Shown: positions 26,363 through 30,457 of the stretch, in pieces | Position numbering within the stretch: position 1 is the stretch's first letter | Layout of the letters: the number at the start of each line of letters is the position of its first letter | Source of the DNA: a virus | Lineage: Duplodnaviria > Heunggongvirae > Uroviricota > Caudoviricetes | IMG/VR virus record: IMGVR_UViG_2671180357_000001 | Location: 1 to 30,616 of that record | Strand: one strand, 5' to 3' | Length of the DNA stretch: 30,616 bases | Program-made: the position numbers and the translations under genes | The notes under the pieces: generated by a model | Told to the model about the DNA's origin: nothing | What the model saw: only the letters and a program-made list of their open reading frames with translations | The model's database searches: none

Positions 26363-26671
26363 ATGACGGTAATCGTGTACGGGAAATCAACATTTGCAGG
26401 AAATGCCAAAACTCGCCGTCATGAGCGGCGCAGAAAGCTGGCTATCGAGCGTGATGCTATATGCAACATCATCGATTCGATCTTCGGCACAGACAGTGAG
26501 GAACCTGTTCAGGAAGCCCCGAGAAAACGTTTAATCCTTTCTGAAAAAGCAATATCACTCGGCAACATTCGTAACCAAAATACCGACGAATGCAGTGGAA
26601 GTATTTGCCTGCCAAACGTAGCTCTTTACGCGGCAGGCTACCGGAAATCAAAACAACTGACGGCGAGGTAA
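26363..26671 (+). CDS. N: Antitermination protein N, P22 gp24-type
   Basis: ORF 26279..26671 trimmed to Met29 (MTVIVYGKSTFAGNAKTRRHERRRKLAIERD...), an arginine-rich motif matching recalled P22 gp24; GAGGAAAA RBS. Confidence 0.75.
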   Translation: MTVIVYGKSTFAGNAKTRRHERRRKLAIERDAICNIIDSIFGTDSEEPVQEAPRKRLILSEKAISLGNIRNQNTDECSGSICLPNVALYAAGYRKSKQLTAR

Positions 26672-26961: not shown

Positions 26962-27048
26962 ATGGAAGAAGAATTTGAAGAGTTCGAAGAGCATCCGCAG
27001 GATGTGATGGAACAATACCAGGACTATCCTTATGACTACGACTATTGA
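26962..27048 (+). CDS. Candidate acidic/aromatic micro-protein (28 aa)
   Basis: MEEEFEEFEEHPQDVMEQYQDYPYDYDY; GAGGTGA immediately upstream; 3' end overlaps the ral start by 17 nt; may be a coupling leader. Confidence 0.3.
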   Translation: MEEEFEEFEEHPQDVMEQYQDYPYDYDY

Positions 27049-27232
27049 TAAAAATCAATGGTGTGGACAATTCAAGCGATGCAATGGATGCAAGCTGCAA
27101 TCGGAATGCATGGTTAAGCCTGAAGAAATGTTTCCTGTAATGGAGGATGGGAAATATGTCGATAAATGGGCAATACGAACGACGGCAATGATTGCCAGAG
27201 AACTTGGTAAACAGAACAACAAGGCTGCCTAA
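27032..27232 (+). CDS. ral: Ral-like restriction alleviation protein
   Basis: 66 aa, MTTTIDKNQWCGQFKRCNGCKLQSECMV... matches recalled lambda Ral; position downstream of N. Confidence 0.7.
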   Translation: MTTTIDKNQWCGQFKRCNGCKLQSECMVKPEEMFPVMEDGKYVDKWAIRTTAMIARELGKQNNKAA

Positions 27233-27368
27233 TGGTGGCCTTTATTTTTGGCATAAACAACAGAATAAACACTGCACTGTGTATTCATTCCAACGAGTGA
27301 ATACACGGAGCAATGTCGCTCGTAACTAAACAGGAGCCGACTTGTTCTGATTATTGGAAATCTTCTTT

Positions 27369-27395
27369 GCCCTCCAGTGTGAGGGCAATTTTTTT
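27369..27395 (+). terminator. Rho-independent terminator just upstream of the EAKR-protein gene
   Basis: GCCCTC-CAGTGT-GAGGGC hairpin followed by AATTTTTTT. Confidence 0.55.
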
Positions 27396-27407
27396 GACGG
27401 AGGATAT

Positions 27408-28376
27408 ATGAGTGAAGTAACAGATTTAGTTGTTATTGAAAAAGCAAATGCAATGACTGTATTTCAGTCTGCCGACCAGATTGAAGAAATCCTTCAAAGG
27501 GTTGAACGTGAAGTTATGTCCTTTGTGCCTGATATCACAACGGCAAAGGGCAGAAAGGAGATCGCTTCTCTGGCGTATAAAGTTGCGCAGACGAAAACAT
27601 ATCTCGATGGTCTTGGCAAAGACCTTGTTGCTGAACTGAAGGAAATTCCAAAGCTAATTGATGCCAACCGCAAGACAGTGCGCGATCGCCTTGATGAACT
27701 GAAAGCCAAGGCACGCCAGCCTCTTACTGATTATGAAGAGGAACAGGCGCGGATTAAAGCCGAAGAAGAAGCTAAGGCAGCAGCTGAAGCTCTCGCAAAG
27801 CAAATTGAGTCTGACCATGAAATAGCGATTTTGATGGATCGCGAATTTGACCGCCAAAGAGAAGAGGCAAGACTCAAAGCGGAGCAGGAAAAGCGAGAGC
27901 ATGAAGAACGCTTAAAAAGAGAAGCTGAAGAGAAAGCCAGAGCAGAAGCCGAAGCAAAGGCAAAAGCCGAAATTGAAGCAGCAGCAAGGCGAGAAGCAGA
28001 AGCTAAGGCCGCAGCGGAACGTGCAGAGCGTGAACGCATTGAAGCCGAGCAACGAGCACAGCGCGAAGCAAAAGAGGCAGCAGAACGAGCTGAAAGAGAA
28101 AAGCAGGCGGCAATTGAAGCAGAACGCCGAAAAGCACAGGAGGAGGCGGAACGAATCCGGCGCGAGGCTGAAGCAAAAGAGCAAGCCAGAATAGCAGAAG
28201 AAAAAAGAATCAAGGACGAAGAAGAGCGCAGAGCAAAGGATAAAGCTCACCGGAAAGAAGTAAATAACAAAATACTTGCTGACCTTATCAAGGTTGGCGC
28301 ATCAGAAGATGTTGCTAAAAATATCATAACAGCCATCGCAAAAGGCGAAGTATTCGCAACAAAAATAACCTACTAA
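27408..28376 (+). CDS. Hypothetical coiled-coil protein with long Glu/Ala/Lys/Arg-rich central repeat region (322 aa)
   Basis: ORF 27354..28376 trimmed to Met19 (GGAGGA RBS); about 110-aa N-terminal region, about 170 aa of EAKAEAEARRE-type low complexity, short C-terminal region. Confidence 0.6.
   Translation: MSEVTDLVVIEKANAMTVFQSADQIEEILQRVEREVMSFVPDITTAKGRKEIASLAYKVAQTKTYLDGLGKDLVAELKEIPKLIDANRKTVRDRLDELKAKARQPLTDYEEEQARIKAEEEAKAAAEALAKQIESDHEIAILMDREFDRQREEARLKAEQEKREHEERLKREAEEKARAEAEAKAKAEIEAAARREAEAKAAAERAERERIEAEQRAQREAKEAAERAEREKQAAIEAERRKAQEEAERIRREAEAKEQARIAEEKRIKDEEERRAKDKAHRKEVNNKILADLIKVGASEDVAKNIITAIAKGEVFATKITY
27760..28280. repeat. Low-complexity GAA/GCA/AAA/CGN-rich coding repeat encoding the EAKR tract
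   Basis: Imperfect short repeats visible in the nucleotide sequence; they generate spurious antisense ORFs 27731..28213 and 27912..28250. Confidence 0.6.
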
Positions 28377-28400: not shown

Positions 28401-28532
28401 ATGATTTACGCAATCGCGGGAGGCGCTCGCATGGGTGCCTTCCAACTAAATGAATCTTTACTTGAACGAATCACCCGTAAATTACGTGACGGATGGAAAA
28501 GAGCTGAGGTCTTATTATGCGCAATGAAATAG
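28401..28532 (+). CDS. cIII: CIII-like protein (FtsH-inhibitor family)
   Basis: 43-aa ORF absent from the track: MIYAIAGGARMGAFQLNESLLERITRKLRDGWKR..., central helix matches recalled lambda CIII; AAGGAA RBS. Confidence 0.7.
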   Translation: MIYAIAGGARMGAFQLNESLLERITRKLRDGWKRAEVLLCAMK

Positions 28533-28669
28533 CCATCAATCACCAGATGCTTCGTGCTGCACAGAACAAAGCAGTAATAGCCAGATTTATTGGTGATTCA
28601 AAAATGTGGCTTGAAGCAAATAAAGCGATGAAATCAGCTATCAACATTCCGTGGTATCGCAGGAAATGA
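28517..28669 (+). CDS. kil: Kil-like protein (candidate host cell-division inhibitor)
   Basis: 50-aa ORF overlapping the cIII end: MRNEIAINHQMLRAAQNKAVIARFIGDSKMW... resembles recalled lambda Kil. Confidence 0.6.
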   Translation: MRNEIAINHQMLRAAQNKAVIARFIGDSKMWLEANKAMKSAINIPWYRRK

Positions 28670-28824
28670 GTTTTACAGATAGCTGGTCAGACGAAGAATT
28701 CATTCGTCAGATGAAAGAATTAATCGGTAACGAAGGAGATATTCATGTCACTTGCAACCACAGTGAAGGAGAGCAAGTTACAGAGACGCATGTACACGCA
28801 GAAAGCTCTCTGGTATCGCCATAA
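28666..28824 (+). CDS. Small acidic hypothetical protein (52 aa)
   Basis: ATGA overlap with the kil stop; MSFTDSWSDEEFIRQMKELIGNEGDIHVTCNHSEGEQ...; overlaps the next ORF, so one of the two may be spurious. Confidence 0.3.
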   Translation: MSFTDSWSDEEFIRQMKELIGNEGDIHVTCNHSEGEQVTETHVHAESSLVSP

Positions 28825-28915
28825 TGGCGACCGCGAAGGAATGCGGGTATGCCTTAATTTGTCACGAGTCGAAGTATTAAATCAGCGTTATTTCCTTGGG
28901 CTATGTCCATTCTGA
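28745..28915 (+). CDS. Small basic hypothetical protein (56 aa) immediately upstream of the recombinase
   Basis: AAGGAG 6 nt before the ATG; MSLATTVKESKLQRRMYTQKALWYRHNGDREGMRVCLNLSRVEVLNQRYFLGLCPF. Confidence 0.4.
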   Translation: MSLATTVKESKLQRRMYTQKALWYRHNGDREGMRVCLNLSRVEVLNQRYFLGLCPF

Positions 28916-28923
28916 GGTGAATT

Positions 28924-29631
28924 ATGGATTTGAACAAATTCGATGAGCCATTCAGCCCTGAAGATATCGAATGGCGAATACAGCAAAGCGGTAAAACACG
29001 CGATGGCAAGGTGTGGGCTATGGTGCTGGCTTATGTCACGAACAGGGCAATCATGAAACGCCTGGACGATGTTTGCGGCAAAGCAGGATGGCGCAATGAA
29101 TACCGCGATATTCCCAACAACGGAGGCGTTGAATGCGGCATATCAATCAGGATTGATTCCGAATGGGTAACCAAATGGGATGCTGCTGAAAACACGCAGG
29201 TAGAAGCCGTAAAAGGTGGTCGTTCCGGTGCAATGAAGCGCGCTGCCGTTCAGTGGGGAATCGGTCGGTATCTGTATAACCTTGAGGAAGGTTTCGCACA
29301 AACATCTCTCGACAAAAAGCAGGGATGGCACAGGGCAAAACTCAAGGATGGAACAGGATTTTACTGGCTCCCTCCATCGCTGCCGGGCTGGGCAATCCCA
29401 GCATCAGATAACAAACCATCACCAGAAAATACCAACCAGAAATCTCCATCGGTTGACTGCGAACAAATCCTGAAAGACTTCAGCGATTATGCGTCAACAG
29501 AAACTGATAAGAAAAAACTCATCGAGCGTTATCAGCGTGACTGGCAATTAATGGCTGGCAACGAGGAGGCGCAGGCTAAATGCGTTCAGGTAATGAACAT
29601 CAGAGTTAACGAACTAAAACAGGCGGCATAA
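28924..29631 (+). CDS. Single-strand annealing recombinase, Rad52/Sak-type core with Erf-like C-terminal tail
   Basis: Rad52-family signature (KRAAVQWGIGRYLYNLEE); C-terminal about 60 aa (TETDKKKLIERYQRDWQL...KCVQVMNIRVNELKQAA) resembles the recalled P22 Erf C-terminus. Confidence 0.8.
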   Translation: MDLNKFDEPFSPEDIEWRIQQSGKTRDGKVWAMVLAYVTNRAIMKRLDDVCGKAGWRNEYRDIPNNGGVECGISIRIDSEWVTKWDAAENTQVEAVKGGRSGAMKRAAVQWGIGRYLYNLEEGFAQTSLDKKQGWHRAKLKDGTGFYWLPPSLPGWAIPASDNKPSPENTNQKSPSVDCEQILKDFSDYASTETDKKKLIERYQRDWQLMAGNEEAQAKCVQVMNIRVNELKQAA

Positions 29632-30147
29632 ATGGCAAGCAGAGGCGTAAATAAGGTGATCATTATTGGTCGCCTTGGGCATGATCCAGAAATCAGATAT
29701 TCACCATCAGGAACGGCATTTGCAAACCTTACAGTTGCTACGTCAGAGCAATGGCGTGATAAGCAAACTGGAGAGCAAAAGGAGCAGACGGAGTGGCACC
29801 GCGTGGTAATGAGCGGGAAACTGGCAGAAATTGCCAGCGAATATCTGCGAAAAGGCTCTGAGGTTTATCTTGAAGGCAAATTGCGGACAAGAAAATGGCA
29901 GGATCAAAGCGGACAGGATCGGTTCACTACCGAAGTTATCGTAGGAGTTGGTGGAACCATGCAAATGCTTGGTGGCAAGCAAGGAGGCAATGAACAGTCT
30001 TCACCTCAGCGAAATAACGGTAAGCAACAAAAACAGCAATCTCAGCAGCAGGGGAATCACAGCGAACCACCTATGGATTTTGACGACGATATACCCTTTG
30101 CACCAGTAACTCTCCCCTTCCCTCGTCACGCTATTCACGCAATTTAA
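29632..30147 (+). CDS. ssb: Single-stranded DNA-binding protein
   Basis: OB-fold N-terminus ([23 protein letters not shown]...), Gly/Gln-rich linker and acidic C-terminal tail DFDDDIPF; start overlaps the recombinase stop. Confidence 0.9.
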
Positions 30148-30160
30148 TCAGGAGAAAATC

Positions 30161-30457
30161 ATGCCAGCGCCTCTGTATGGTGCGGATGACGCGCGCCGCT
30201 GTTCCGGCAATTCCGTATCGGAGGTGCTGGATAAATTCAGGAAAAACTACGACCGGATAATGTCTCTACCGCAGGAAACGAAAGAGGAAAAGGAATTTCG
30301 CCATTGTATATGGCTTGCAGAGAAAGAAGAACGCGAGCGAATTTACCAGACATCAATCCGACCATTCCGCAAAGCCACATATACCCACTTCCCTGAATAT
30401 ATCGACCCGCGCCTGCGTAATTACCGCTCACGCTATGGCGCTATCAGTAATGACTGA
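30161..30457 (+). CDS. Hypothetical protein (98 aa)
   Basis: ORF with GGAGAAAA RBS directly after ssb; no family recognised. Confidence 0.5.

Follow-up and report, generated by a model that had tools for sequence, protein, structure and literature searches.

In phage λ, the C-terminal domain (CTD) of the Redβ annealase binds λ Exo and then SSB's C-terminal tail (SSB, single-stranded DNA-binding protein; PMC11611040). Annealases of the RecT family recognise, or rely on, the final 7 residues of SSB, and the CTD of the Erf-like protein Gp77 consists of three helices that lie peripherally above the ring and are dispensable for ring-dependent activation of RAZR. Closer to the locus described here, passages of the 2008 genome paper of phage ε34 state that proteins of this kind are named Erf solely for their C-terminal 56 residues, refer to "Erf domain swaps" as a matter already discussed earlier and cite ES18 as reference 33 (PMC2629481). 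Since that paper states an Erf domain swap, the mosaic that joins an Erf-type tail to a Rad52-type core is already known and in the literature, published in the years 2004-2008. The genome papers of Sf6 (2004) and ES18 (2005) are reportedly among references 31-33 of the ε34 paper.

We analysed a 30,616-nt stretch of DNA (IMG/VR record IMGVR_UViG_2671180357_000001), referred to below as the window, which derives from a P22-like E. coli phage or prophage (Lederbergvirus; Sf6/CUS-3/HK620-type). Its minus strand carries structural, lysis, nin and replication genes of P22-like character and its plus strand carries the early left operon. On this plus strand, an N/gene-24 homologue (26363-26671), ral (27032-27232) and a gene for a 340-aa coiled-coil protein equivalent to Sf6 gp33 (27354-28376) are followed by cIII (28401-28532) and a λ-type kil (28517-28669), both assigned with Pfam, and then by two small ORFs, of which the first, of 57 aa (28651-28824; equivalent to Sf6 gp30 and HK97 gp42.1), overlaps the second, of 56 aa (28745-28915; equivalent to Sf6 gp29 and HK97 gp42). 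A Shine-Dalgarno-like GAGGTG, read from the sequence at 28914-28919 (plus strand), lies 4 nt 5' of the ATG of the recombinase, a single-strand annealing protein of 235 aa (28924-29631, plus strand), and the operon continues on the same strand with ssb (29632-30147; 171 aa), abc2, encoding the 98-aa anti-RecBCD protein 2 (30161-30457; Pfam PF11043, E 4e-61), and an orf56-like gene downstream of abc2. An earlier note on this DNA, made from the letters alone, had placed the recombinase and SSB reading frames correctly at 28924-29631 and 29632-30147, and its ssb call is upheld by Pfam (see below), but the overlap that it described between the ssb start and the recombinase stop does not exist: the TAA at 29629-29631 abuts the ATG at 29632 with a 0-nt spacer.

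The 57-aa and 56-aa ORFs occupy the place of P22 arf. They match phrog_2123 and phrog_1723, and both are kept in the Sf6, mEp235, E. coli CS5L and HK97 loci, as judged by tblastn. Neither has detectable similarity to P22 Arf, and a search of the window for homologues of P22 Arf and Abc1 found none; the string SDEEFI of the 57-aa ORF, also present in Arf, was rejected as a sign of likeness for being too short. The abc2 product is 92% identical to P22 Abc2, and the DNA of the abc2 region is 85% identical. As in a P22-type module, an abc2 homologue stands beside the annealase gene, within the early left operon and 3' of cIII/kil. We conclude that the locus is a standard early-left-operon recombination module of small ORFs, annealase, ssb and abc2, with abc2 completing the set.

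The N-terminal part of the recombinase is a Rad52/Rad22-type annealing core with a beta-beta-beta-alpha fold (aa 4-136; 28933-29331, plus strand), assigned with Pfam, AlphaFold2 and Foldseek. The Pfam family Rad52_Rad22 (PF04098) matches at E 7.2e-26 with 91.4 bits (cut-off 20.3) over model positions 7-153 of 153, and the same domain-wise HMM search gave no match to ERF (PF04404) even at E<=10, in line with the Rad52 signature that the earlier note had seen here. An AlphaFold2 model of the full-length protein (mb25a5b84e351; 42 homologues, mean pLDDT 82.5) predicts a Rad52-like core and, after it, a small beta element of three strands (aa 126-149), a disordered linker and three C-terminal helices. 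When compared with the PDB using Foldseek, the top 16 matches were all yeast Mgm101 or human RAD52 (probability 0.91-1.0), the highest-ranked of both reaching 0.99-1.0. The small conserved beta element, recognised in the alignment and the AlphaFold2 model (aa ~122-159; 29287-29400, plus strand), is WW-domain-like and carries the motif GW..AK.KD...FYW.PP.LP.WA.P, in which W148, P151, L153, P154, W156, A157 and P159 are invariant among the 42 homologues, and its predicted strands span residues 126-128, 136-139 and 145-149. A profile of the full-length alignment gave no significant match to PDB sequences, the only one, a weak match, being to the Prp40 WW domain over the beta element (E 0.09). The element is followed by a low-complexity linker rich in S, P, N, K and Q (aa ~160-178; 29401-29457, plus strand), which is of variable length and predicted to be disordered; pLDDT falls below 50 at aa 162-175, and both length and sequence of the linker differ among the aligned homologues.

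Beyond the linker, the protein ends in an Erf-type CTD (aa 179-235; 29458-29628, plus strand), predicted to be a three-helix bundle and recognised by BLASTP, by DNA match and in the AlphaFold2 model. When the recombinase was aligned with P22 Erf (NC_002371, 27254-27871, minus strand) using BLASTP, only aa 157-235 found a counterpart, Erf residues 134-205, at 63% identity over 79 columns and E 2e-30, a value that excludes compositional bias as the sole source of the alignment. Identity rises to 75% over the last 56 residues, and the resemblance to P22 Erf that the earlier note had recognised in the last ~60 residues is far beyond chance. The same limit is visible in the DNA, in which only 29461-29631, the last 171 nt of the recombinase gene, matches erf (78% identity); abc2, cIII, ral and gene 24 match P22 separately, and ssb stands where P22 has abc1. 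The P22 Erf core belongs to Pfam ERF (PF04404; aa 5-146, 157 bits), a model that stops short of the Erf CTD, and the cores of the window protein and of P22 Erf share 16% identity over 160 aa. In the full-length model the CTD helices lie at 179-192, 196-209 and 214-234, and a model of the CTD by itself (pLDDT 93) places them at residues 7-20, 24-37 and 42-62 of a 63-aa construct; the conserved hydrophobic core consists of L183, F186, Y203, W207 and L231. The recombinase is thus a mosaic in two parts, with an Erf-type tail attached to a Rad52-type core, and the joint between them can be seen in the DNA.

To describe the distribution of the tail, we used a CTD profile in an exhaustive search of 1.84 billion representative proteins at E<=0.001. 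Only 52 clusters were matched, always at the C-terminal end of the protein. A Pfam scan of the longer matches found the CTD on ERF cores (P0148, P0149, P0155, P0158, P0163, P0166, P0167 and P0179) and on RecT cores (P0177, P0169 and P0161); P0177, for example, has 296 aa, with RecT at 27-183, a long P/A-rich linker and the CTD at 243-285. Among named genomes, ERF cores with the CTD occur in P22, HK97, Klebsiella GZ7 and Erwinia Eho49. Judged by these matches, the CTD is an accessory module that is portable and accompanies cores of the Rad52, ERF and RecT types. Three further candidates for additional architectures were set aside, namely P0150 (Dam-methylase N-terminus plus CTD) and P0136 (DUF1980 fragment plus CTD) as assembly, frameshift or deletion artefacts, and P0141 as frameshifted.

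Gene context was compared across 10 reference loci and two metagenomic look-ups. A Rad52 core with the CTD is followed by ssb and abc2 in the window and in the E. coli CS5L prophage, by ssb, an exonuclease gene and abc2 in ε34 and mEp235, by ssb, an HNH endonuclease and abc2 in ES18 and Sf6, and by abc1 and abc2, with no ssb, in phage L; ssb also adjoins abc2 in HK75, ECP1 and CP-1639. The ERF core with the CTD is followed by abc1 and abc2 in P22, whereas in HK97 an ERF core with a divergent CTD precedes the SSB-like gp40 (phrog_44, E 2.7e-25) and abc2. In Klebsiella GZ7 an ERF core with the CTD has an arf-like gene upstream and an abc1-like gene downstream, and in the metagenomic locus L013 a RecT core with the CTD has a DUF3799 nuclease upstream and no Abc2 or SSB nearby. 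While abc2 was present in eight of the ten reference loci, no Abc2 was found within ±2.5 kb of the CTD-bearing genes of Klebsiella GZ7 and Erwinia Eho49. Pairing of the recombinase with an SSB is frequent without being obligatory: in phage L, abc1-abc2 come after the same recombinase and there is no SSB gene. Of the earlier proposal of domain shuffling within a conserved recombinase-SSB pair, the shuffling holds, and extends to ERF and RecT cores, while the conserved pair fails in phage L.

Identity matrices for eight phages (window, Sf6, mEp235, ε34, ES18, L, P22 and HK97) separate the history of the tail from that of its surroundings. P22 and HK97 have cores that are 89% identical and CTDs that are 40% identical, whereas P22 and ES18, with cores that are unrelated, carry CTDs that are 93% identical. 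Among the Salmonella phages, four in number (ε34, ES18, L and P22), CTD identity is 86-96%, with either ssb or abc1 as the next gene, and the CTDs of the E. coli/Shigella phages (window, Sf6 and mEp235) are 100% identical, even though the SSBs of the window and mEp235 share 71% identity. These comparisons indicate that, within the eight-phage sample, the tail is exchanged independently of both the core and the neighbouring gene. Sequence variants of the tail group largely by host genus among the eight phages, and not by core or downstream gene; HK97, whose host is E. coli but whose CTD differs strongly (38% identity), is the exception and makes the host tracking imperfect.

The SSB encoded next to the recombinase consists of an OB fold (aa 6-105), a Q/G-rich linker and the acidic tip MDFDDDIPF (aa 148-156). 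It matches Pfam SSB (PF00436; E 2e-38, 131 bits, cut-off 26), NCBIfam TIGR00621 (184 bits, cut-off 54), with matches ending at aa 156, and phrog_44. The same nine residues, MDFDDDIPF, end the SSB of the host, E. coli. The reading frame continues past the canonical C-terminal Phe for 15 codons and a stop (30100-30147, plus strand), as seen in the sequence and in the phage matches, so that the ...DDDIPF terminus is not free: MDFDDDIPF is internal and 15 residues follow it. The majority of matches among phage SSBs reach no further than aa 156, and the SSBs of ES18 and Sf6 end at IPF. The 48-nt block that encodes the extension is found in 26 phage records, 22 of them at least 99% identical over the matching part. 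It forms the end of ssb in HK75, ECP1, CP-1639, ε34, mEp235, mEpX2 and others, and the end of an HNH endonuclease ORF inserted directly after the IPF codon in Sf6 (gp26), Huey and Bas106; IME10 and N7 show the same interruption, with no endonuclease gene annotated. From this pattern, the site of the extension looks like a homing-endonuclease insertion site or a mosaic boundary. As an observation in its own right, the SSB of this lineage carries a tip that is masked by a 15-residue extension.

Considering what the tail might do, we found that its dN/dS is 0.06 between the window and P22, at a dS of about 2.2 with synonymous sites near saturation, and 0.12-0.17 for other pairs. This strong purifying selection on the CTD implies that it is more than a recombination linker. 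One could argue that the common 3' end does nothing by itself and is kept as 'linker' homology for swapping recombination modules among lambdoid phages, given that the joint lies exactly at the domain boundary, that mosaic exchange is frequent here and that the neighbouring ssb-abc2 junction is a hot spot of exchange and insertion with a 100% conserved 48-nt block. We regard this as highly improbable: with dN/dS values of 0.06-0.17 and near-saturated synonymous sites, selection acts on the protein and not on the DNA, and the prediction of the CTD fold, which has a conserved hydrophobic core, is a confident one. Poteete, Sauer and Hendrix (1983) reportedly found that fragments of Erf without the C-terminal domain still form rings and bind DNA but are not functional in vivo, which also counts against a mere linker. 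The analogies with Redβ, the RecT-family annealases and Gp77 instead suggest a tethered docking module, and we infer that the tail most likely serves to dock a partner in the manner of the Redβ CTD. The Rad52-type N-terminal core would form an oligomeric ring and bind and anneal ssDNA, and the disordered linker would tether the 57-residue three-helix CTD to it. The CTD, in turn, would recruit the annealase to SSB-coated ssDNA via the acidic SSB tip common to host and phage SSBs, or alternatively target a host resection or replication factor, and the source of the ssDNA would be RecBCD modified by Abc2. The abutting TAA/ATG suggests that annealase and SSB may be translated together. Taken as a whole, we assign a probability of about 0.7 to the reading that the locus is a standard module whose annealase combines a Rad52 core with a portable, probably partner-docking Erf-type CTD, the gene having arisen by the mosaic exchange that is usual in lambdoid phages and having its joint at the interdomain linker. 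Some findings count against this reading. The tip of the window SSB is internal, with 15 residues after it; this would hinder its canonical recognition in the phage SSB, but the host SSB would be unaffected. The HK97 CTD is divergent, so that host tracking is imperfect, and the presence of abc2 in eight of the ten loci leaves room for a link to Abc2-RecBCD.

Two more specific partners have to be weighed against this general docking role. The tail could couple the annealase to RecBCD hijacked by Abc2 (or else to Abc1, to Arf or to the small ORFs upstream), so that it is loaded onto resected DNA as Redβ is by λ Exo. The abc2 gene is indeed part of the window, P22, L, ES18, ε34, Sf6, mEp235, HK97 and E. 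coli CS5L loci, a published model has Abc2 redirect RecBCD to load Erf (PMC9836394), and the Redβ CTD binds its exonuclease (PMC11611040). On the other hand, CTD-bearing loci without abc2 exist and therefore disfavour Abc2-RecBCD as the general partner: in Klebsiella GZ7 and Erwinia Eho49, which possess the CTD, there is no Abc2 within ±2.5 kb, and RecT plus CTD is paired with a DUF3799 nuclease. In HK620, conversely, abc2 is paired with a Sak4 annealase. As a core-only RecA-type protein, Sak4 is presumably without an Erf-type CTD, and in Murphy's work Abc2 is said to support recombination also with λ Bet, whose CTD differs. We consider this coupling unlikely. The view closest to the earlier note, in which the CTD would be a docking site dedicated to the SSB of the phage itself and annealase and SSB would form a co-evolving cognate pair, draws on the co-oriented, abutting genes (TAA/ATG), on the recurrence of this adjacency in Sf6, ES18, ε34, mEp235, HK75 and ECP1, on HK97, in which the gene for ERF plus CTD is followed by that of the SSB-like gp40, and on the precedent of HK620, in which Sak4 is stimulated by the neighbouring SSB through the SSB tail. 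However, phage L and P22 possess the CTD and have abc1 in place of ssb, the CTDs of ES18 (next to ssb) and L (next to abc1) are 96% identical while those of the window and ES18, both next to ssb, are 82% identical, and the window and mEp235 combine 100% identical CTDs with SSBs that are 71% identical. In addition, there are RecT plus CTD loci without an SSB gene nearby, and the tip of the phage SSB equals that of the host, so that no private specificity is evident; a private pair of this kind is, in our judgement, quite unlikely. 

A tentative extension, which we think is possible but rather doubtful, is that the Erf-type tail acts as an interchangeable host-adaptation cassette, used by at least three core families, and that the annealase is guided by host SSB while the tip of the phage SSB is masked. 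If this were true, the variant of the tail would be set by the host, for example by host SSB or another replication or repair factor, and not by the core or the neighbouring genes, and ssDNA would be coated by a phage SSB that does not recruit those host proteins that interact with SSB. Were the partner of the tail found, it could help to choose or engineer annealases for recombineering in new hosts.

The module is widespread. With megablast, the 1.2-kb recombinase-ssb segment was found in 93 phage records, at 84-98.5% identity among the records listed, which include Sf6, HZ41, ECP1, IME10, ES18, ε34, g341c, mEp235, mEpX2 and HK75, and in 420 of 5426 complete E. coli genomes. The protein database holds 5591 recombinase homologues at E<=0.001, and the best 120 of these are almost all full-length, with 57-99% identity, and come from across the Enterobacterales (Escherichia, Salmonella, Cronobacter, Citrobacter, Klebsiella, Hafnia, Pantoea, Erwinia and others). 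The word 'hybrid' in the earlier note makes the architecture sound unusual, but it belongs to a large and stable family that was described in print in 2004-2008. The window recombinase matches phrog_1097 over its full length (E 6.5e-130), and P22 Erf is in phrog_155, which has contact with phrog_1097 through the C-terminus only. RefSeq phage entries use the PHROG name 'Erf-like ssDNA annealing protein' because the protein falls in phrog_1097, and the label 'Erf-like' itself derives from the C-terminal tail only, whereas its PGAP name in E. coli genomes is 'Rad52/Rad22 family DNA repair protein'. Users of these annotations should be aware that the two names denote one protein and that only the second describes the catalytic core. 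Since the module is common and its mosaic nature published, the consequence in terms of discovery is small, and our additions are limited to the occurrence of the tail on RecT cores, its variants by host genus in the sample, the purifying selection acting on it and the masked SSB tip.

When compared with described systems, the core of the window protein has its Pfam family and fold in common with RAD52, Mgm101 and Sak of the lactococcal phage ul36, the last being likened by family; sequence identity to the solved structures (RAD52 and Mgm101) is just 14-18%, and the C-terminal regions of all three are unrelated to the tail of the window protein. λ Redβ follows the same overall logic: a flexible linker joins an annealing core of the Rad52 superfamily to a small helical CTD, without which annealing still proceeds in vitro but which is required in vivo. 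No sequence similarity between Redβ and the window protein is detectable, and the partner nuclease is the phage's own Exo in λ and hijacked RecBCD (abc2) in the window system. P22 Erf carries the same three-helix tail after a flexible S/P/Q-rich linker, occupies the same genomic position with abc2 downstream and presumably has the same role as a ring-forming ssDNA annealase, but the flanking genes differ: arf lies upstream and abc1 downstream in P22, and their places are taken in the window by unrelated small ORFs and by ssb. The closest relatives are Sf6 gp28, ES18 gp49, ε34 gp36 and the 'Erf' of L/ST64T (orf235), which at 235 aa have the same length as the window protein and share 94-100% of core residues and 82-100% of CTD residues with it. 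Sf6 gp28 is 100% identical to it in the 160-aa and 56-aa regions compared, and the 'Erf' of phage L is 91% identical. Differences from this group are insubstantial: the ssb-abc2 junction is uninterrupted in the window, whereas an HNH endonuclease is found there in Sf6 and ES18 and an exonuclease gene in ε34 and mEp235. The annealase genes of Sf6, ES18, ε34, L and ST64T likewise lie in the early left operon with abc2 downstream, and the window protein is a member of this group.

In the SSB of the window phage, the product of ssb (29632-30147, + strand), the acidic tip MDFDDDIPF, the same as that of the host SSB, is internal rather than C-terminal and is followed by 15 further residues (SSB aa 148-171 for tip and extension together; 30073-30147, +), as seen from the sequence and from comparison with phage SSBs. 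The 48-nt block encoding the extension was present in 26 phage records, and in 22 of these the portion that matched showed at least 99% identity. An HNH endonuclease ORF is inserted directly after the IPF codon in Sf6, Huey and Bas106, and the same block supplies the 3' end of that ORF, so that the SSB has a canonical end in these phages. IME10 and N7 are interrupted in the same way, with no endonuclease annotated there. Judged from these sequences, the block, and with it the SSB extension, is probably the target or the scar of a homing endonuclease.

The junction between ssb and abc2 is an insertion hot spot when the window is compared with four reference loci. The gap is empty in the window (30147-30161, 13 nt), whereas Sf6 and ES18 carry an HNH endonuclease gene at this position and ε34 and mEp235 an exonuclease-like gene of ~183 aa.

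In the recombinase, homologue alignment and structure prediction delineated an element, GW..AK.KD...FYW.PP.LP.WA.P (29287-29400, +; aa ~122-159), which is strongly conserved and lies after the Rad52 core and before the linker. W148, P151, L153, P154, W156, A157 and P159 did not vary across 42 homologues. The element is predicted to fold into a three-stranded sheet and resembles a WW domain, the sole match being a weak one to the Prp40 WW domain (E 0.09). P22 Erf does not contain this element.

The profile of the Erf-type C-terminal tail also matched three database proteins, P0150, P0136 and P0141, predicted chimeric or frameshifted products with this tail at their end; in P0150 the N-terminus of a Dam-type methyltransferase is fused to an HK97-type tail. 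Their probable origin is either a deletion within a decaying prophage or an artefact of assembly. Separately, a 1698-bp entry labelled 'Staphylococcus phage SA 1298 Kay' (OR850339.1) codes for an Erf tail of the enterobacterial type that shares 87% identity with that of the window; the entry is probably mislabelled or a contaminant.

Further upstream, a 340-aa ORF (27354-28376, +), equivalent to Sf6 gp33 and assigned to phrog_1376, has a long, highly charged, K/A/E/R-rich and coiled-coil-like middle; Pfam and NCBIfam scans of this ORF returned no match. Several long antisense ORFs lie within it, probably as artefacts of its repetitive composition. Just 5' of the recombinase are two small ORFs of 57 and 56 aa (28651-28915, +), which lie in different frames with an 80-nt overlap. 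The loci of Sf6, mEp235, E. coli CS5L and HK97 have conserved both. The annotation in Sf6 names them gp30/gp29 and that in HK97 gp42.1/gp42, and their PHROG label is 'recombinase' (phrog_2123, phrog_1723), the basis of which is not evident. A search for similarity of the two ORFs to P22 Arf detected none, and they occupy the place that arf holds in P22.
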